Below, in pieces: positions 3,408 to 39,057 of a stretch of 64,000 bases of DNA. Position numbers and translations under genes: made by a program. This DNA comes from Alphaproteobacteria bacterium. GTDB taxonomy: Bacteria; Pseudomonadota; Alphaproteobacteria; Rs-D84. The DNA lies in the NCBI GenBank assembly GCA_017616785.1, contig JAFZXK010000009.1, positions 1,612-65,611 on the forward strand. Direction: 5' to 3'. Numbering within the stretch: the stretch's first letter is position 1; each line of letters begins with the position of its first letter. The notes beneath the pieces were generated by a model. It did not search any database and was not told the DNA's origin. It worked only from the letters and a program-made list of their open reading frames with translations.

Positions 3408-3914
3408 ATGCCAGACATACCAGATACAGAATATATTACGGTAAAAGCAGACGGAGTTTTTGTTGGTGGCAAACCTGCTACACATTACCGTGGTGTGAAA
3501 ATAGGTTATCGCAAATCTATAAATATAAATTTTCAGGATATTTTAAAGAAATACCCAAACATTCAAGAAATGCGTTTCTTAACATCGGAAACAGGCGGAG
3601 TGTATCACACAAATGGAAATCCCGTTGCAGAAAACGGTTCGAATGCATGGGCTTGTGTGAAGTTTGATGATGGTTATGTGTCGCCTTAGACTCTTATTTT
3701 TGAACATTATCCTTATGATTTTTTTGTGAGTCATGAAATATGCCGGAAATTACGTCTTATGGCTGATGAATATTGTTTTCTGAAACCAGTATTGGGACGC
3801 TATCAGGATGTGACATTCAGAATAAGTCTACAAAACATGGATGGGAAATCGTTCGAGTTGAATGGTTATAGGATTACGATCGAAAAGATTTCAGAACGAC
3901 AAAAAGGCAAATAA
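3408..3914 (+). pseudogene. hypothetical ORF interrupted by a single in-frame TAG (3687-3689)
   Basis: ORFs 3408-3689 and 3726-3914 are in the same frame. The 12 codons between them contain no stop. Confidence 0.4.
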
Positions 3915-3918
3915 AATC

Positions 3919-3939
3919 CCGGTCGTTTGACCGGTTTTT
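3919..3939 (+). terminator. rho-independent terminator
   Basis: Hairpin CCGGTC-GTTT-GACCGG followed by TTTTT. Confidence 0.6.
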
Positions 3940-3985
3940 CTTTTCCCTTGCCTTGGGGTTGGGAAATCGTGTATTTTTATAATGT

Positions 3986-6037
3986 ATGAAAAAAGAGTTG
4001 TTTGATTTTCTGACGACGGACCTGCAATTTATTCGCGGGGTTGGGCCGGTTTTGGCGGCACGGTTCTTTGATTTGCTGGGGAATCGGCGGATTTTGGATT
4101 TTTTGTTACATATACCCGTCTATGTCAAGGAACGCGGTGTAATCGACAGTGTTGCAACCGCAATGCCCGGCGAAATTGTCACGACCATGGTGCGGGTGAA
4201 ATCCCATAAAATTGCGCGCAATTTCGGTCGGCGGCGCGCGCCTACGCGTATTACCTGTGTTGATAAAGTTGGGCAAACGGTTGTTATTCAATTCTTTAAT
4301 TCAAATTTTTTGGATTATTGGCTGAAAAAATTGCCGATTGGCGAATGGCGCATGATAAGTGGCAAATTGGAACAAACATCAACGCCGACAATCAATCACC
4401 CTGAATTTATCGAAGAAGTGCAAAACGCCGATAAAATTCCAAAGATTCAGGCAATTTATCGTTCCGGCGAAGGGATAACACAGAAAACCTTTACAAATAT
4501 CCGCGACCAGATTTTTGCGGCATTGCCAGACAAACTCATTGGTGAAGATGAACATTTGGTGGAATTTTTTGATGCGTTGCGCAATGCGCATTATGCACAA
4601 AGCAACGATGAATTGCAATCTATGTCTGATACGATTGTAAAATTGGCGTATTTCGAATTATTGGCGCACCAGGTTGCAATCGCCGCAAACCGCCGCACGC
4701 GTAAGGACGAACGGCATCGGCGAACGCCACGCGCAAAAAAATATGATTTGTTGCCGCGCTTCTATGAATCACTGCCGTTCAATTTGACGGGCGCGCAAAA
4801 ACGCGCGGTCGATGAAATTGCGCACGATATGTCCAGCGATTTTCCGATGATGCGCCTTGTCCAGGGGGATGTCGGTTGCGGGAAAACAATGGTTGCAATG
4901 GCAGCAACGGTTATGATGGCGGAATTTGGTGCACAAACGGCGTTGCTTGCGCCAACCGATACATTGGCCGCACAACATTATGCGAAACTTAAACCGCTGT
5001 GTGAAAAACTTGGTTTAGTGTGCGATATTTTAACCGGACGCGACAAGGGCGCGGCGCGGCGCGAAAAGTTGATTTCGCTGCGTTCGGGGCGGACACGGTT
5101 GGTTGTTGGAACGCACGCACTTTTTTCCGACGATGTGGAATATAAAGATTTGGGGCTTGTGATAATTGATGAACAACATCGCTTTGGTGTCGCGCAACGC
5201 GAAGCATTACGCGCAAAGGGAAACAATCCGGATGTGTTGGCGCTTTCCGCAACGCCGATACCGCGAACTTTGTCAATGACGATTTACGGCGATATGGATG
5301 TTTCGATTATAAATGAAAAGCCCGCGGGGCGCATGCCGATAAAGACAACCAAGTTACCAATTTCGCGCATCGATGCATTGATAGACCGATTACGGGTCCA
5401 AGTAGTTAGTGGCGCAAAAGTTTTCTGGATTTGTCCGTTGGTTGTGGAATCCGAAGAATCCGACGCAACCGCCGCACAACATCGATACGAAGAATTAAAA
5501 AAAGTTTTCACATGTGTTGGTTTGGTGCATGGGCAAATGTCCAAGGATGAACGCGACAAAGTTATGGCGGAATTTGCGCGGCCGGGTTCGGATATAAAAA
5601 TTCTTGTTGCGACGACGGTAATCGAAGTTGGAATCGATGTTCCCGATGCGACAATAATTGTAATTGAAAACGCGGAACGATTTGGACTTGCGGCGTTGCA
5701 CCAATTGCGTGGGCGTGTTGGGCGCGGGGCGGCACAATCGTTTTGTATTTTGCTTTATGGCGATAATGTTTCGCCCGATGGAATCAAACGTTTGGACGTG
5801 CTGACCGAAACGAATGATGGCTTTGCAATTGCGGAACAAGATTTGATGATGCGTGGCGTCGGCGAATTACTTGGCACGCGGCAATCGGGATGGATAAATT
5901 ATCACTTTGTTGATTATCGTGGCCACAGGGATTTGTTCAAATTGGCCGCGCGTGCGGCGTCTGATATGGTTAGGGTCGAACCGTGGGTGAATGATTTAAT
6001 GTTTATATTTGATAGAACATTAAAGATAGGTGTCTAA
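3986..6037 (+). CDS. recG: ATP-dependent DNA helicase RecG
   Basis: 683 aa with Walker A GDVGCGKT, DEQH(RFGV) and QLRGRVGRG helicase motifs, plus an N-terminal wedge region. Confidence 0.95.
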   Translation: MKKELFDFLTTDLQFIRGVGPVLAARFFDLLGNRRILDFLLHIPVYVKERGVIDSVATAMPGEIVTTMVRVKSHKIARNFGRRRAPTRITCVDKVGQTVVIQFFNSNFLDYWLKKLPIGEWRMISGKLEQTSTPTINHPEFIEEVQNADKIPKIQAIYRSGEGITQKTFTNIRDQIFAALPDKLIGEDEHLVEFFDALRNAHYAQSNDELQSMSDTIVKLAYFELLAHQVAIAANRRTRKDERHRRTPRAKKYDLLPRFYESLPFNLTGAQKRAVDEIAHDMSSDFPMMRLVQGDVGCGKTMVAMAATVMMAEFGAQTALLAPTDTLAAQHYAKLKPLCEKLGLVCDILTGRDKGAARREKLISLRSGRTRLVVGTHALFSDDVEYKDLGLVIIDEQHRFGVAQREALRAKGNNPDVLALSATPIPRTLSMTIYGDMDVSIINEKPAGRMPIKTTKLPISRIDALIDRLRVQVVSGAKVFWICPLVVESEESDATAAQHRYEELKKVFTCVGLVHGQMSKDERDKVMAEFARPGSDIKILVATTVIEVGIDVPDATIIVIENAERFGLAALHQLRGRVGRGAAQSFCILLYGDNVSPDGIKRLDVLTETNDGFAIAEQDLMMRGVGELLGTRQSGWINYHFVDYRGHRDLFKLAARAASDMVRVEPWVNDLMFIFDRTLKIGV

Positions 6038-20238: not shown

Positions 20239-20643
20239 TTAATCATCGTCACGTTCACGGTGTTCGCGCATTTTTTTATGCATTGACTTTTTCACCGAAT
20301 CAAATTCAATACTTGTAATACAGCCATTCATATCAGTATCGGCAAACATCAATTCATGTTGCATTTTTGGACATTTTATCGAATCCATAACCAGGCAACC
20401 GTTTTCGAATTTCGGCTGTATCCTTGGCATATGGCGATGACCGCGGCAACATGTGATTTTCGCAACCGCAAAGCCCAAGATGAACACAATCAACAACACA
20501 ATAAACTTTTTGAATTTTCCGCAGTGGCAACCGCACCCACATGAAGTGCCGCATTGACATTCGTGCATTTCCGGTGCCCGAACGGTCGCCATGTGTGGCG
20601 CCGCGCGTTTTGTAGTTTTTTTAACAGATGATTTTTTTTGCAT
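20239..20643 (-). CDS. Cys-rich single-pass membrane protein with an EF-hand-like loop
   Basis: CQCGTSCGCGCHCG cluster, a TM helix, and DTDMNGCITSIEF (DxDxNGxIxxxEF). Confidence 0.5.
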   Translation of the reverse strand: MQKKSSVKKTTKRAAPHMATVRAPEMHECQCGTSCGCGCHCGKFKKFIVLLIVFILGFAVAKITCCRGHRHMPRIQPKFENGCLVMDSIKCPKMQHELMFADTDMNGCITSIEFDSVKKSMHKKMREHRERDDD

Positions 20644-20751: not shown

Positions 20752-21780
20752 TTATATCGCTGGCCCGGCGGTAAAGTCATCACCACTGGTCGCGGCGTTC
20801 GTAAATAACGTGCCAGACACCGTATCATACATACCAAGGACATTATCAGAAATTCGTTTGCAAGGGATTAAATCTTGTATTATTACACCATCTTTTTCTA
20901 CAGTATGATGGTAAATTTTACCACTTGCTTCGTTTCCTGCTGTGCCACTATTATTACGCGCAAATAAGTAAATCGAGAGGGTATTCGCTGTAAATGTTTC
21001 AGGAGATGGTATCGTCATATTTCTCACTACTGTTCCGTCTATTGTCGCCTTCCAATTATTAGAGTTGTTAGTAGTATAAACTTTGCTAACAAATGTATGT
21101 TTATTTGTATCTTGCGGGACATCAGAAACAACTGTGGCATTAACACTAAACAAATATTGCGATGCATACGACGCTAATGTCCAACGTGGTAATGTACCAG
21201 AACCCATATAACCACATATACATAAAGGTGTTGAAGTTGAATTAACGCTATCAAAACTCGCTACTGTGGTTATTGTATAATCAAATGTTTTAGGTACAAT
21301 CCCCGTATCAATATACTGTGTCCCCGTGGATTGTATGTATTCCAACCGTGTATATCCATCGGGTAATTCACGGGCATACGCCGTTTGGTCGACGATGGTC
21401 CAAAGGTCACATATGCCCGGGTTTGCACATTCCAATTTTGTTGTGTCCGTCGTTGGTAAATTTGTAAATGTGGCGTTTAAGGCCGACGCAGTGATAAGTT
21501 TATCGCCATCCATGGCTGCATTATAACTACTCGCATCACTATACAACCCGCGTTCACCAATTTCGCCATTACCATTCGCGGTATAGGTCATTACTGTTTC
21601 ACCCGCACCACCGTTTGTTTGACCCGCCGCAGGTATCTTTAATTGTTTTGTCGCAACCTGTGTATCAACATATGCCTTGGATGATACGGTTTGAAGGTCC
21701 TCTGGCGTTGGTTCCGCAAACACACCAATAATCGTCATGAACGTACACAATACTGATGTCAATAATACCTTTTTTAGCAT
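20752..21780 (-). CDS. secreted modular protein A2 (shared N-module + variable C-terminal domain)
   Basis: Signal peptide. The N-module ...VSSKAYVDT..KIPAAGQTNGG..GERGLY..DKLITASAL..LPTTDTTKLECAN is shared with three other ORFs. C-terminal blocks YTRLEYIQSTGTQYIDTG...GMYDTVSGTLF...FTAGPAI. Confidence 0.7.
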   Translation of the reverse strand: MLKKVLLTSVLCTFMTIIGVFAEPTPEDLQTVSSKAYVDTQVATKQLKIPAAGQTNGGAGETVMTYTANGNGEIGERGLYSDASSYNAAMDGDKLITASALNATFTNLPTTDTTKLECANPGICDLWTIVDQTAYARELPDGYTRLEYIQSTGTQYIDTGIVPKTFDYTITTVASFDSVNSTSTPLCICGYMGSGTLPRWTLASYASQYLFSVNATVVSDVPQDTNKHTFVSKVYTTNNSNNWKATIDGTVVRNMTIPSPETFTANTLSIYLFARNNSGTAGNEASGKIYHHTVEKDGVIIQDLIPCKRISDNVLGMYDTVSGTLFTNAATSGDDFTAGPAI

Positions 21781-21806: not shown

Positions 21807-22244
21807 TTAATCGCCACTGTTATTATTATCTTCATCGCCGTATACCTGTTGATCTTGGACCGTCCATAAACTGCATGTTGGGCTGTTCGCACAGGTCAAT
21901 TTTGATGTGGTCAATGTTGGCAAACTTGATACACTTCCCTTTAATGCGGATGCCGTTACCAATTTATTCGCATCTGTGTTTGCTGTATAAGTGCTTGGGT
22001 TATCGTATATTCCGCGTTCACCAATTGTACCGTTTCCGGTTGTTGTATATGTGACGACCGAAACGCCGGGCGTTCCGCTATTTGTGTTTGCCGCGGGTAT
22101 TTTGGCCTGTCTGGTTTCAACAGATGTATCAACATATGCCTTGGATGACACGGTTTTACGGTCCGTTGCCGTCGTTTCCGCGTATGCAATTCCGCCCATA
22201 AACACGCATAATGCAAATGCACATAATTTCCCAGAAATTCGCAT
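21807..22244 (-). CDS. secreted short protein A1 (N-module only, Asn/Asp-rich tail)
   Basis: Signal peptide and the same N-module as A2/B1/B2. GGGGAG RBS. It is the first gene downstream of switch A. Confidence 0.7.
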   Translation of the reverse strand: MRISGKLCAFALCVFMGGIAYAETTATDRKTVSSKAYVDTSVETRQAKIPAANTNSGTPGVSVVTYTTTGNGTIGERGIYDNPSTYTANTDANKLVTASALKGSVSSLPTLTTSKLTCANSPTCSLWTVQDQQVYGDEDNNNSGD

Positions 22245-22303
22245 GGTTCTCCCCTTTTTTCCTATGATTTACTGGCATACAAATCCGCTATTAAAAGTGT
22301 ATC

Positions 22304-22322
22304 AAAAACCAAGGTTTTTTTT
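22304..22322 (+). repeat. hix-like recombination site A-left (core AA at 22311-22312)
   Basis: GTATCAAAAACC-AA-GGTTTTTTTT. The gene-proximal half TATCAAAAACC resembles the Hin hix half-site. Confidence 0.75.
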
Positions 22323-22417
22323 ACACCACCACGGCGAAAAGTGCGAAATTTGTAATCTATTGTTTTTACTATGAAAAAAATTTTTGATTTTTTGAAAAAA
22401 GTGGTTGACTAAAAACC
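22313..22417 (+). promoter_or_regulatory. invertible cassette A; -35 TTGACT (22405-22410) faces away from operon A and toward the invertase gene
   Basis: The interior is the reverse complement of cassette B (1 mismatch over ~85 nt), while the outer flanks are collinear. Confidence 0.75.
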
Positions 22418-22429
22418 TTGGTTTTTTTT
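22411..22429 (+). repeat. hix-like recombination site A-right (core TT at 22418-22419)
   Basis: AAAAACC-TT-GGTTTTTTTT, inverted relative to A-left. Confidence 0.75.
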
Positions 22430-22538
22430 ATACCACTTAAAAAACGATGAAACCCTTATTATATCTTGCCTGTAACACAGGTGCCGATGTTTTTTCAGAC
22501 GCCTATTTTTAAGTCATTTTACACAAAAGGATAACACA

Positions 22539-23138
22539 ATGATTTATGGATATTGTCGCGTTTCAACCACGCATCAACACGAAGAAAATCAACATTTTGT
22601 CATAGAAAATTTTGCAAAGCAAAACAACATCAATATCGATTCTTGGATTGAAGAAAAAATTTCAAGTGGGCGAAAATTGCAAGACCGCAAGTTGGGCGCG
22701 CTGTTAAACGACCTTCAATCCGGCGACATATTGATTACCACAGAAATATCACGATTGGGGCGCAGTTTACTAGAGGTAATGGGAATTTTGCAAATGTGTC
22801 TTGAACGCGATTGCCAAATATGGACATTAAAAGAAAATTTTCGTTTGGGTACGGACATACAATCAAAAGTATTGGCATTTGCGTTTGGACTTTCTGCGGA
22901 ATTATCGCGTTCTTTGTTGCGCGACCGTGTGCGCGAAAGTTTGGCGCGCCTAAAAGCGGGCGGTAAAAAATTAGGACGTCCAATCGGCGCACAATCAAAG
23001 TTTTTGAAACTTAGTAAAAACAATGAACGAATAAATCTGCTAATAAGCCAGGGGATAAGTAAAAGTAAAATCGCGCGAATTATGCGCGTAAACAAAGTAA
23101 CACTTTACAATTATTTGCGAAACGCCAGTCAAATGTAA
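22539..23138 (+). CDS. small serine recombinase, Hin/Gin/Cin-type DNA invertase
   Basis: 199 aa with MIYGYCRVSTTHQ (catalytic Ser), ISRLGRS, and a C-terminal HTH (KSKIARIMRVNKVTLYNYL). Confidence 0.85.
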   Translation: MIYGYCRVSTTHQHEENQHFVIENFAKQNNINIDSWIEEKISSGRKLQDRKLGALLNDLQSGDILITTEISRLGRSLLEVMGILQMCLERDCQIWTLKENFRLGTDIQSKVLAFAFGLSAELSRSLLRDRVRESLARLKAGGKKLGRPIGAQSKFLKLSKNNERINLLISQGISKSKIARIMRVNKVTLYNYLRNASQM

Positions 23139-37307: not shown

Positions 37308-38333
37308 CTATTGTTGTTCTTGGGGAATGTAGACATTTATTGCAGGTCCAGCGGTAAATTCACCGGTACCGATGTTAAGTTTAAATGTGTCACTAACTGT
37401 ATCATACATACCAACACTGTTTCCGGACTTTGCTGGCACACCGTTAAAGACAAGCACGTTATCTAAATAAATTTGAAATTTATAAACCTTCATTTTTGCA
37501 GGAGAGTAGTCAGCAGTATATCCAGTAAATAACATTATGTTTTTGTCTCGTCCTATATCATCTTCCATATACGTGTAGGGTGCTTCATAAACACCTTCAT
37601 CAAAAAGCAAACTAATGTTTGCATCCGATGGTGTTAGACCAGCATCAAACGTCACCACATGTCGATTTGTGTCAAAAGGGATTCTTATCTGGCTACTTGA
37701 CGAAACTGTTCCGCCCATAGAAATCCTAAATTGATTTGAATATAACCATATGGTTCCAGTTCGTCTGCCGCCCATTCCACCCCAAAGTCCAGAGACGGTG
37801 TAATCTTTCATTTTAAAATCAGCAATATATCTTACATGTTCACTTGTTCTGTATTTTATACCCGTATTAATATATTGTGTACCCGTGGATTCAATATATT
37901 CCAACTGTGTGTATCCCGCGGGCAAAATGCTATACGCACTTTGGTCGACGATGGTCCAAAGGGTGCAATCTTGATTCGCACATTCCAATTTTGTTGTGTC
38001 CGTCGTTGGTAAATTTGTAAATGTGGCGTTTAAGGCCGATGCAGTTATAAGTTTATCACCATCTGTGTTGGGGTTATAACTACTCGCATCACTATATAAC
38101 CCGCGTTCACCAATTTCACCATTACCATTCACGGTATACGTCATTACTGTTTCACCCGAACCACCGTTTGTTTGACCCGCCGCGGGTATCTTTACCTGTT
38201 TTGTTGCAACCGCTGTGTCAACATATGCCTTGGATGATGCGGTTTTAAGGTCCTCTGCCGTTGGTTCCGCAACCGCACCAAAAATCGTCATTACCGTGCC
38301 CAATATCGATGTTAGCAATACCCTTTTAAACAT
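37308..38333 (-). CDS. secreted modular protein B2 (paralog of A2)
   Basis: Same signal peptide and N-module as A2. YTQLEYIESTGTQYINTG. Divergent C-terminal domain ending GMYDTVSDTF...FTAGPAI. Confidence 0.7.
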   Translation of the reverse strand: MFKRVLLTSILGTVMTIFGAVAEPTAEDLKTASSKAYVDTAVATKQVKIPAAGQTNGGSGETVMTYTVNGNGEIGERGLYSDASSYNPNTDGDKLITASALNATFTNLPTTDTTKLECANQDCTLWTIVDQSAYSILPAGYTQLEYIESTGTQYINTGIKYRTSEHVRYIADFKMKDYTVSGLWGGMGGRRTGTIWLYSNQFRISMGGTVSSSSQIRIPFDTNRHVVTFDAGLTPSDANISLLFDEGVYEAPYTYMEDDIGRDKNIMLFTGYTADYSPAKMKVYKFQIYLDNVLVFNGVPAKSGNSVGMYDTVSDTFKLNIGTGEFTAGPAINVYIPQEQQ

Positions 38334-38368: not shown

Positions 38369-38830
38369 TTAATCATTGTTATTATTGTTACTATTATTGT
38401 TGTTACTGTTGTTATTCTCGTCACCGTATACCTGTTGATCTTGGACCGTCCATAAACTGCATGTTGGGCTGTTCGCACAGGTCAATTTTGATGTGGTCAA
38501 TGTTGGCAAACTTGATATACTTCCCTTTAATGCGGATGCCGTTACCAATTTATTCGCATCTGTGTTTGCGGTATAATCGCTTGGGTTATCGTATATTCCG
38601 CGTTCACCGATTGTCCCGTTTCCGGTTGTTGTATATGTGACGACCGCCGTCCCAAGTGTGCCGGAATTAGTGCCAGCCGCGGGTATTTTGGCCTGCCTGG
38701 TTTCAACCGATGTATCCACATACGCTTTGGACGATACGGTTTTGCGGTCTGTTGCCGTCGTTTCCGCACATGCGATTCCACACACAAACACGCATGTTAT
38801 AAATACAAATAAATTCCTAACGATTCGCAT
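38369..38830 (-). CDS. secreted short protein B1 (paralog of A1, poly-Asn tail)
   Basis: The ATG at 38830 is preceded by GGAGGA. The gene is near-identical to A1 over long DNA runs. Confidence 0.7.
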   Translation of the reverse strand: MRIVRNLFVFITCVFVCGIACAETTATDRKTVSSKAYVDTSVETRQAKIPAAGTNSGTLGTAVVTYTTTGNGTIGERGIYDNPSDYTANTDANKLVTASALKGSISSLPTLTTSKLTCANSPTCSLWTVQDQQVYGDENNNSNNNNSNNNNND

Positions 38831-38891
38831 GGTTTCCTCCCCTTTCTTCCTTTGATTTATCTGCATACAAATCCGTTGTTAAAAGTGTATC

Positions 38892-38905
38892 AAAAACCAA
38901 GGTTT
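38892..38905 (+). repeat. hix-like recombination site B-left (core AA at 38899-38900)
   Basis: GTATCAAAAACC-AA-GGTTT. Confidence 0.75.
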
Positions 38906-39005
38906 AAAATCAACCACTTTTTTCAAAAAATCAAAAAATTTTTTCATAGTAAAAACAATAGATTACAAATTTCGCACTTTTCGCCGTGGTGGTGTAAAAA
39001 AAACC
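38901..39005 (-). promoter_or_regulatory. invertible cassette B; -35 TTGATT (38908-38913, minus strand) faces operon B and pairs with fixed TGnTACACT (38884-38892)
   Basis: Minus strand reads TTGATT-18 nt-TACACT with TG at -15/-14. The RBS and B1 start lie ~55 nt downstream. Confidence 0.65.
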
Positions 39006-39016
39006 TTGGTTTTTTT
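38996..39016 (+). repeat. hix-like recombination site B-right (core TT at 39006-39007)
   Basis: AAAAAAAACC-TT-GGTTTTTTT. Confidence 0.75.
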
Positions 39017-39032
39017 ATACCACCCCTAAACA

Positions 39033-39057
39033 CAAAAAAACCGCAGATTTATGCGGT
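39033..39057 (-). terminator. rho-independent terminator after the HAD gene, insulating switch B
   Basis: Minus strand reads CCGCA-TAAATC-TGCGG followed by TTTTTTT. Confidence 0.65.

Follow-up and report, generated by a model that had tools for sequence, protein, structure and literature searches.

Does a short DNA cassette that stands twice, in opposite orientations, in the genome of an alphaproteobacterium act as a genetic switch, and if so, what does it switch? The two copies lie at loci A and B of a 64-kb stretch of contig JAFZXK010000009.1 (positions 1,612 to 65,611 of the forward strand). This whole stretch is called the window here. Each copy is bounded by hix-like inverted repeats and has a minus-strand operon on one side, and the copy at locus A is adjacent to a gene for a serine recombinase. 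We consider it probable that the cassettes are invertible split-promoter elements, flipped by the adjacent Mpi/Hin-like serine recombinase.

In the proposed mechanism, the recombinase would cut and rejoin the central AA/TT dinucleotides of two 26-bp hix-like sites that are 107 bp apart. The cassette would carry only the upstream half of a sigma-70-type promoter, namely an UP-like block and a -35 element (TTGACT or TTGATT), and the -10 element, TGnTACACT, would stay in the chromosome just beyond the gene-side site. In the ON orientation, predicted for locus B, the -35 and -10 would be 17-18 nt apart with the crossover site as their spacer, and a two-gene operon for secreted lectin-fold proteins would be transcribed. 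In the OFF orientation, predicted for locus A, the -35 would meet a flank without a usable -10, and an upstream terminator would stop read-through. The same enzyme would probably serve many cassettes genome-wide, resulting in combinatorial phase variation of one surface-protein family, and a protein of the integration host factor (IHF) type, bound at mid-cassette, may bend the segment so that the two sites can synapse.

Repeat anatomy and orientation states

The window contains the pattern AAACCWWGGTTT at exactly four places, starting at 22306, 22413, 38894 and 39001 (0.04 occurrences expected from shuffled sequence), and all four sites read AAACC-WW-GGTTT around the core dinucleotide. At locus A, the gene-side crossover site, a 26-bp hix-like sequence (GTATCAAAAACC-AA-GGTTTTTTTTAC), spans 22299-22324 with its core AA at 22311-22312, and the far-side site (TGACTAAAAACC-TT-GGTTTTTTTTAT) spans 22406-22431 with its core TT at 22418-22419. 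The corresponding sites of locus B lie at 38887-38912 (core AA, 38899-38900) and 38994-39019 (core TT, 39006-39007). At both loci the cores are 107 bp apart, and the invertible segments between them, 22313-22417 and 38901-39005, are 105 bp long. Compared directly, these interiors differ at 56 positions, and at 4 once one of them is reverse-complemented; one of the four differences is mid-cassette and three adjoin the TTGAC end. The original prediction, made from the letters of the window, held that the same 107-bp cassette is present twice in opposite orientations, with a single substitution plus two or three changes beside the site, and that interiors failing to align as reverse complements would speak against it. 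The exact comparison bears it out on each of these counts. Its description of the outer flanks as collinear holds for the gene side, where 20 nt from the core are identical and the 100 nt compared are mostly similar, but on the far side only about 16 nt are shared (GGTTTTTTT(T)ATACCAC, with the T run differing by 1 nt) and the sequences diverge beyond them. The core-to-core segment contains no open reading frame (ORF), and an Rfam scan of the entire window returned four tRNAs only, with no match in the cassettes.

The sites were also compared with known crossover sites. In a published table of Din-family sites, hixL reads TTCTTGAAAACC-AA-GGTTTTTGATAA (PMC3241671). The site centre found here, AAACC-AA-GGTTT, is identical to that of Salmonella hixL, and of the 12 bases of the conserved hix half-site TTATCAAAAACC, 11 are shared by the half-site TATCAAAAACC (and by GTATCAAAAACC). 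The likeness to hix noted in the original prediction is confirmed for the centre and the half-site, but not for the polarity of the core: on its own strand, the half-site of hix has TT after it, and the one here has AA. The outer positions of the sites also depart from the TTC---/---GAA consensus.

Core pairs of AAACCAAGGTTT and AAACCTTGGTTT that are 116-127 bp apart also occur in an Atopobiaceae metagenome-assembled genome (MAG; L036, 279-394), in Clostridiales UMGS902 (L060, 3262-3381) and in a Methylococcaceae MAG (L067, 4-130). These pairs have longer, unrelated inverted repeats and different interiors, and could represent short invertons that belong independently to Hin-type invertases of other phyla. 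In contigs L162-L171, the cassette upstream of the recombinase (about 1263-1390) has an extra, degenerate site-like sequence, AAACCCCTTGGTTT, just within its left crossover site; the cassette has one and the same orientation in all 10 of the contigs sampled.

Loci in other assemblies were found through the exact protein sequences of neighbouring genes; the locus B proteins had no record by exact sequence, and the neighbouring HAD gene was used as the query instead. The orientation of locus B seen in the window recurred in three contigs (L009-L011). In L012, the HAD-side flank was identical to that of locus B at 150 of 150 positions, yet it was joined to the opposite end of the cassette, and single-nucleotide polymorphisms (SNPs) specific to locus B were kept across the junction. 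Similar observations came from the contigs, many in number, that carry P0173, a recombinase 84% identical to that of the window. The cassette adjacent to P0173 had one orientation in L172 and L181 and the other in L175, L176 and L178. Between L172 and L175, the flanks were identical at 299 of 300 and 298 of 300 positions, the interior of one was the reverse complement of the other with 2 mismatches in 109, and the switch from one sequence to the other began 4-5 bp or less from the core. Scans of genomes and metagenomes gave three further same-locus pairs in opposite orientations (L088/L143, L021/L127 and L122/L160), and interiors were 96-98% identical between orientation states. Cassette A is also the exact breakpoint of contigs from several samples, with L008 stopping inside the left core and L003-L006 starting in or beside the cassette.

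Conservative site-specific inversion between the hix-like sites by the adjacent recombinase, as originally proposed, is supported by these results as their best reading. The accompanying statement that two states were captured within one assembly needs amendment, as the states are indeed opposite but belong to two different loci, not to one locus seen twice. Because single loci do occur in both states when assemblies are compared, frozen paralogues, a MITE (a miniature transposable element with inverted repeats) of fixed insertion and misassembly are not sufficient explanations. The pairs compare different public assemblies and not the reads of a single sample, which weighs against taking from them a rate of switching or mixing within a population; we infer the rate, as well as the role of the adjacent enzyme as the acting recombinase.

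Two short contigs, L100 and L123, whose cassettes end at 1042 and 1691, respectively, showed an unusual combination of flanks, with gene-type flanks on both sides of one cassette and far-type flanks on both sides of the other. These are either the reciprocal outcome expected of recombination between different cassettes, that is, of a large inter-locus inversion, or natural bidirectional arrangements.

The cassette family and a predicted split promoter

The gapped pattern AAACCAAGGTTT-N80-110-AAACCTTGGTTT, run on contigs from one genome per species, returned 57 stretches, nearly all of them from MAGs of rumen and gut Alphaproteobacteria, including Candidatus (Ca.) Enterousia species. A second pattern returned 91 stretches in metagenome contigs. 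Among 113 distinct cassettes, 103 measured exactly 119 bp from site to site, and core-to-core distances of 96, 106, 110 and 111 bp were found in divergent lineages. The genome RUG14636 carried 23 cassettes on contigs totalling about 1 Mb, nearly all of them 119 bp from site to site (21 OFF, 2 ON); RUG13256 carried 13, all OFF, and RUG774 carried 7. The majority of cassettes in assemblies were OFF, with 0-2 ON per genome, which is the pattern expected of a phase-variable family. The density in RUG14636 amounts to one switch per about 40 kb; Bacteroides fragilis has about 30 invertons in about 5 Mb, and on that basis the density in RUG14636 is several-fold higher. Wherever the adjacent gene was readable, the cassettes stood upstream of a single protein family, and the flanks outside the repeat were homologous. 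Thus, it appears that whole units were duplicated, rather than that cassettes were inserted.

With the cassettes oriented alike, one end was nearly invariant and the opposite end variable. In the 103 distinct 119-bp cassettes, the invariant end consists of an A/T-rich block followed by GTGTTGAC(T)nnAAACC-TT-GGTTT, so that the cassette ends in GAAAAAAAGTGTTGACTnnAAACC-TT-GGTTT, and it reads as an UP-like element and a -35 abutting the crossover site. By this conservation of the cassette end, cassette A contains a -35-like TTGACT at 22405-22410 on the plus strand, after an A/T-rich, UP-like block at about 22371-22402. Since TTGACT lies at the end that faces the recombinase gene, locus A reads as OFF for its minus-strand operon. 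A putative extended -10, TGATACACT, is fixed outside cassette A on the gene side (22296-22304, minus strand) and would be 18 nt from TTGACT once the cassette was inverted. At locus B, the -35 end points towards the minus-strand operon and the locus, by the same sequence criteria, reads as ON; this is the segment that is inverted in L012. The predicted assembled promoter of locus B (38884-38913, minus strand) comprises TTGATT at 38913-38908, an 18-nt spacer that holds the core, and TGaTACACT, with the -10 at 38889-38884.

The position of the outside motif followed the presence of a gene. A TAnnnT hexamer was found 16-18 nt from the cassette -35 in 79 of 102 gene-bearing flanks, as compared to 7 of 91 flanks without a gene. 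The outside hexamer read TACACT where the spacing was 18 nt and TACGCT where it was 17 nt, and TG often preceded it. On the far side, the same motif had a spacing of 20, which is 2 nt further, or the hexamer ended in C, G or A instead of T. Two divergent relatives, each beside a 71-72% identical recombinase, would have near-consensus promoters if their cassettes were inverted, namely TTGAAT-17-TGtTATAAT followed by AAGGAG and ATG in L027, and TTGATT-17-TGcTACAAT in L161. It appears that the crossover site lies within the promoter spacer, with the -10 outside, and we infer that transcription depends on orientation. Neither this apparent split nor the large family of loci figured in the original prediction. 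Intrinsic terminators reading towards the cassette were present in 52 of 112 far-side flanks, as compared to 1 of 89 gene-side flanks. At locus B, the intrinsic terminator of the upstream HAD gene (39040-39057, minus strand) points towards the cassette and is predicted to shield the switched operon from read-through. A literature search found no described inverton with a split promoter of this kind, -35 inside and -10 outside; the collection searched was incomplete, so that novelty is not proven.

The 5' untranslated regions of the switched operons (22245-22295 and 38831-38883, minus strand) share a conserved block, CGGATTTGTATGC...AAATCAAAGG, which recurs at many loci and in many species. A small hairpin predicted in this region of locus B was not significant (z = -1.6).

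Several observations weigh against a split promoter. A consensus promoter scan missed the junction promoter of locus B, which matches at 8 of 12 positions against a threshold of 9. TACACT occurs in the remaining half-sites too, and may partly reflect recombinase binding instead of a -10. The Fisher P value for the association of TAnnnT with genes, 1.7e-24, is inflated, as paralogues and orthologues are not independent. The missed call would suit an alternative in which inversion is real and its logic different: the cassette would contain a complete promoter, or an orientation-dependent terminator or roadblock, and the outside TACACT would be part of a recombinase binding site. AGTGT-type motifs are indeed present in all four half-sites, and a long conserved mid-cassette block (positions 40-97) has no proven role. 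We nevertheless regard this alternative as improbable. Reading of either strand gave no evident -35/-10 pair inside the cassette, the consensus scans having covered each locus in its present orientation, and the most conserved end of the cassette is the -35 that abuts the site. TAnnnT at 16-18 nt goes with the presence of a gene, whereas the far-side motif is shifted by 2 nt or lacks the final T. Finally, L027 and L161 have near-perfect outside motifs, TGnTATAAT and TGnTACAAT, without a matching internal element.

It is also conceivable that the loci are frozen paralogues, in which old inversions of a duplicated regulatory region became fixed and no switching goes on. The two states in the window do belong to two different loci, and most assemblies agree on the state of a given locus (for example, A in L001-L003 and B in L009-L011). 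This explanation is made very improbable by the finding of the same locus in both states (locus B of the window and L012; L172 and L181 versus L175, L176 and L178), by the near-identity of the interiors between states, and by the strong conservation of the sites, their spacing and the adjacent recombinase. We give a little less credence still to the view that the cassette is a miniature transposable element, similar to those of the Correia type, which was inserted in one orientation or the other and is not switched by a recombinase. A copy number of up to 23 per genome, a length of about 119 bp, terminal inverted repeats, an IHF-like motif in mid-element and a promoter part at one end would all agree with such an element; the single downstream gene family with homologous outer flanks, the flips of orientation in place with flanks intact, and terminal repeats that are serine-invertase crossover sites with a cognate recombinase gene alongside would not. 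An assembly artefact, by which repeated cassettes were mis-joined, would fit the repetition of the cassette and the frequent contig breaks there, but its probability is negligible in view of the same architecture in dozens of independent assemblies made by different assemblers, the locus B SNPs retained over the junction of L012, and a palindromic core of only 12 bp, which is much below k-mer sizes.

The recombinase and the short segment

The enzyme predicted to flip the split-promoter elements is a small serine recombinase of 199 amino acids (aa), encoded at 22539-23138 on the plus strand. The gene is 120 bp from cassette A, and this synteny is kept in relatives. The protein has an N-terminal catalytic Resolvase domain (PF00239, 2e-30) and a C-terminal HTH_7 match (1e-4) that falls slightly under its cut-off. 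Its best curated family is NF009949, the master DNA invertase Mpi family (residues 1-196 of 203, E = 4.9e-77), where its score of 258.2 bits, below the curated cut-off of 272, marks it as a close relative just outside the equivalog boundary. The best relative of solved structure was the Gin invertase, in a full-length alignment (8e-11). By profile score, the enzyme is closer to the Bacteroides Mpi family than to Hin, with whose sites and segments the original prediction drew its comparison. Recombinases 71-84% identical to it adjoin a cassette in four other contigs, and identity was 74-97% across the best 120 relatives by score, many of which come from Alphaproteobacteria MAGs.

Mpi of B. fragilis inverts 13 regions (PMC4747536). 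Here too, a single enzyme probably acts on many sites, of which there are many of one type per genome (2 in the window, 23 in RUG14636 and 13 in RUG13256); as a point against this, no recombinase homologue was found within the 8-kb stretches from RUG14636, RUG13256 and RUG774.

It was also considered that cassette A in its OFF state might drive the recombinase gene. This idea was dropped because no TAnnnT was found at usable spacing in the window, L027 or L152, and because a terminator-like hairpin lies in between. A consensus promoter scan at locus A in the present orientation likewise found nothing joining the cassette -35 to the recombinase gene. The hairpin (TGCCTGTAACACAGGTG with a T-rich tail; 22467-22483, plus strand), which stands between cassette A and the start of the recombinase gene, could stop OFF-orientation transcripts leaving the cassette.

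The original prediction regarded a 107-bp invertible segment as unusually short, with an unusual synapse geometry to match. This is correct in comparison with the segments of Hin, Gin and Cin, but not for invertible promoters in general: more than 75% of 10,983 catalogued invertons are shorter than 300 bp (PMC11602134), and Hin also inverts a 200-bp segment (PMC2427008). Since short invertons are common, size alone is not exceptional, and a small loop is feasible given a bending protein.

A candidate site for such a protein is found in the middle of the cassette. Cassette positions 48-64 are conserved as TAA-N4-TTG(A/T)T-TTTAC, with N4 free to vary, which equals the IHF consensus WATCAANNNNTTR on the other strand, and at most a few bp separate the element from the point midway between the cores. 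The exact consensus was present at these positions in 64 of the 113 distinct cassettes and at any position in 82 of 113, as compared to a mean of 2.4 cassettes in shuffles. At locus A the element, TAA-N4-TTGTT-TTTAC, is at 22353-22369 and, read on the minus strand, departs from the IHF consensus at a single position; at locus B it is at 38949-38965. IHF-alpha-like and HU-like genes are present in related genomes. From this sequence evidence, we tentatively suggest that an IHF-type protein might bend the 107-bp segment at mid-cassette and so let the sites synapse, a step we hold to be possible though short of likely.

Against it stand the single mismatch in the motif of both window cassettes and the finding, by eye, of no exact IHF consensus in the L027, L161, P0131 and P0173 lineages. 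Alternatively, the recombinase or a transcription factor might be what binds the mid-cassette block. A-tract and AA/TT periodicity across 103 cassettes gave no clean 10.5-bp signal, so we make no claim of intrinsic curvature. A search of the window and of about 160 fetched loci gave no Fis homologue. In L053, the cassette at 3930-4048 has an IHF-alpha-like gene (3509-3781) about 150 bp away, whose product shares 44% identity with E. coli IhfA over 91 aa, and HU-like genes were seen in L048 and L133.

Known systems and the genes predicted to be switched

Similar to the Mpi invertons at the capsular polysaccharide loci of B. fragilis, the elements described here would combine one serine invertase with many dispersed short promoter switches for surface structures (PMC4747536; PMC10403206). 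They differ from that system in their alphaproteobacterial rather than Bacteroidales host, their hix-type sites and their 107-bp segment, in a promoter that is seemingly split with its -10 outside, and in targets that would be secreted proteins and adhesins instead of polysaccharide operons. With Salmonella Hin/hix and the rest of the Din family (Gin, Cin, Pin), they share 26-bp sites, a 2-bp AA core and an invertase of the serine type, about 190-200 aa long, that has a helix-turn-helix at its C terminus. The segment inverted by Hin, in contrast, is about 1 kb long, and inside it are the gene for Hin, an entire promoter and an enhancer of 65 bp to which Fis binds (PMC3798978); the Din systems lack the many target loci seen here. 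A segment of 107 bp, a recombinase gene outside it and the lack of any sign of a Fis enhancer set the present system apart from a classical Din system.

In the mpl (P35) family of Mycoplasma penetrans, many surface lipoprotein genes each have an invertible promoter of about 135 bp between short inverted repeats, resulting in combinatorial variation; the enzyme there is a tyrosine recombinase, and the promoter is inside the segment. E. coli fimS is likewise an invertible promoter, and its inversion needs a DNA-bending protein bound in or near a short segment (for the involvement of IHF, PMC11868660), but it is a single locus of 314 bp with the whole promoter inside and is served by the tyrosine recombinases FimB and FimE. 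Neisseria Correia elements are about 100-150 bp long and have inverted-repeat ends, an IHF site and promoter parts at their ends (PMC2649163); unlike the cassettes, they are MITEs, mobile or relic, that stand at unrelated sites and that no recombinase flips in place.

Promoter inversion as such is known. Three traits seem to set the cassettes apart: a length that keeps closely to about 107 bp, a crossover site that occupies the promoter spacer and leaves the -10 outside, and the density of switches per genome. A bolder proposal, which we find doubtful on the whole, is that the cassettes represent a distinct, ultra-compact class of serine-invertase switch. In such a class, the crossover site would serve as the promoter spacer, the -35 and UP element flipping and the -10 staying fixed; IHF-type bending at the midpoint of a 96-111-bp segment would replace Fis and its enhancer; and one enzyme would run at least 20 switches in a genome of about 1 Mb, programming a repertoire of secreted lectin-fold proteins and adhesins.

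The split-promoter reading would add uncultured Alphaproteobacteria of the rumen and gut, which are related to Ca. Enterousia, to the bacteria with phase variation of the Mpi/Hin type. The apparent targets, secreted lectin-fold proteins and trimeric-autotransporter adhesins, form a large family and are likely determinants of host or phage interaction. The reading raises the questions of how a serine invertase synapses sites only about 10 helical turns apart, and of whether a crossover site in the promoter spacer gives a tighter OFF state than inversion of a whole promoter. If true, a multi-copy switch of 119 bp that needs a single enzyme and is almost silent when OFF would also be of use in synthetic biology.

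All four genes predicted to be switched in the window are on the minus strand. At locus A, the first (21807-22244) encodes a 145-aa secreted protein with a signal peptide and the motif TVSSKAYVDT, and the second (20752-21780) a secreted protein of 342 aa, which shares the N-terminal module of the first and has a jelly roll resembling ConA, LamG and CBM40 in its C-terminal part. Their secreted paralogues at locus B have 153 aa (38369-38830) and 341 aa (37308-38333). Most ORFs from -10-bearing flanks likewise have a signal peptide, then a (T/S)SKxYVD...KQxKIpA module, and vary in their C-terminal part. At E <= 0.001, the homologues of the 342-aa protein number 1750, none giving it a functional name, and no Pfam domain was found in it. 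In an AlphaFold model made with 34 sequences, its C-terminal domain (about residues 140-342) had a per-residue confidence score (pLDDT) mostly above 90 and matched LamG, ConA-like and CBM40 lectin folds; the model was not confident for the N-terminal module. Considered with the adhesin genes described next, these features suggest that the switches would control surface or secreted binding proteins.

In contigs L162-L181, whose recombinases are 84-87% identical to that of the window, the adjacent cassette faces a gene for a 400-660-aa YadA_anchor protein and not the small TSKxYVD proteins; these genes end about 300 bp upstream of the recombinase. The YadA-anchor genes are predicted to encode trimeric autotransporter adhesins. 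The 153-aa protein of locus B ends in a poly-Asn/Ser tail, NNNSNNNNSNNNNND (38369-38410, minus strand), which could be a slippage-prone tract; its 145-aa paralogue at locus A is without the tail and ends in NNNSGD. Just downstream of the locus A operon, at 20239-20643 on the minus strand, is an ORF of 134 aa that has a Cys-rich stretch (CQCGTSCGCGCHCG) and a predicted membrane segment. It has no Pfam match, and the same neighbour is present in L001, L007 and L008.

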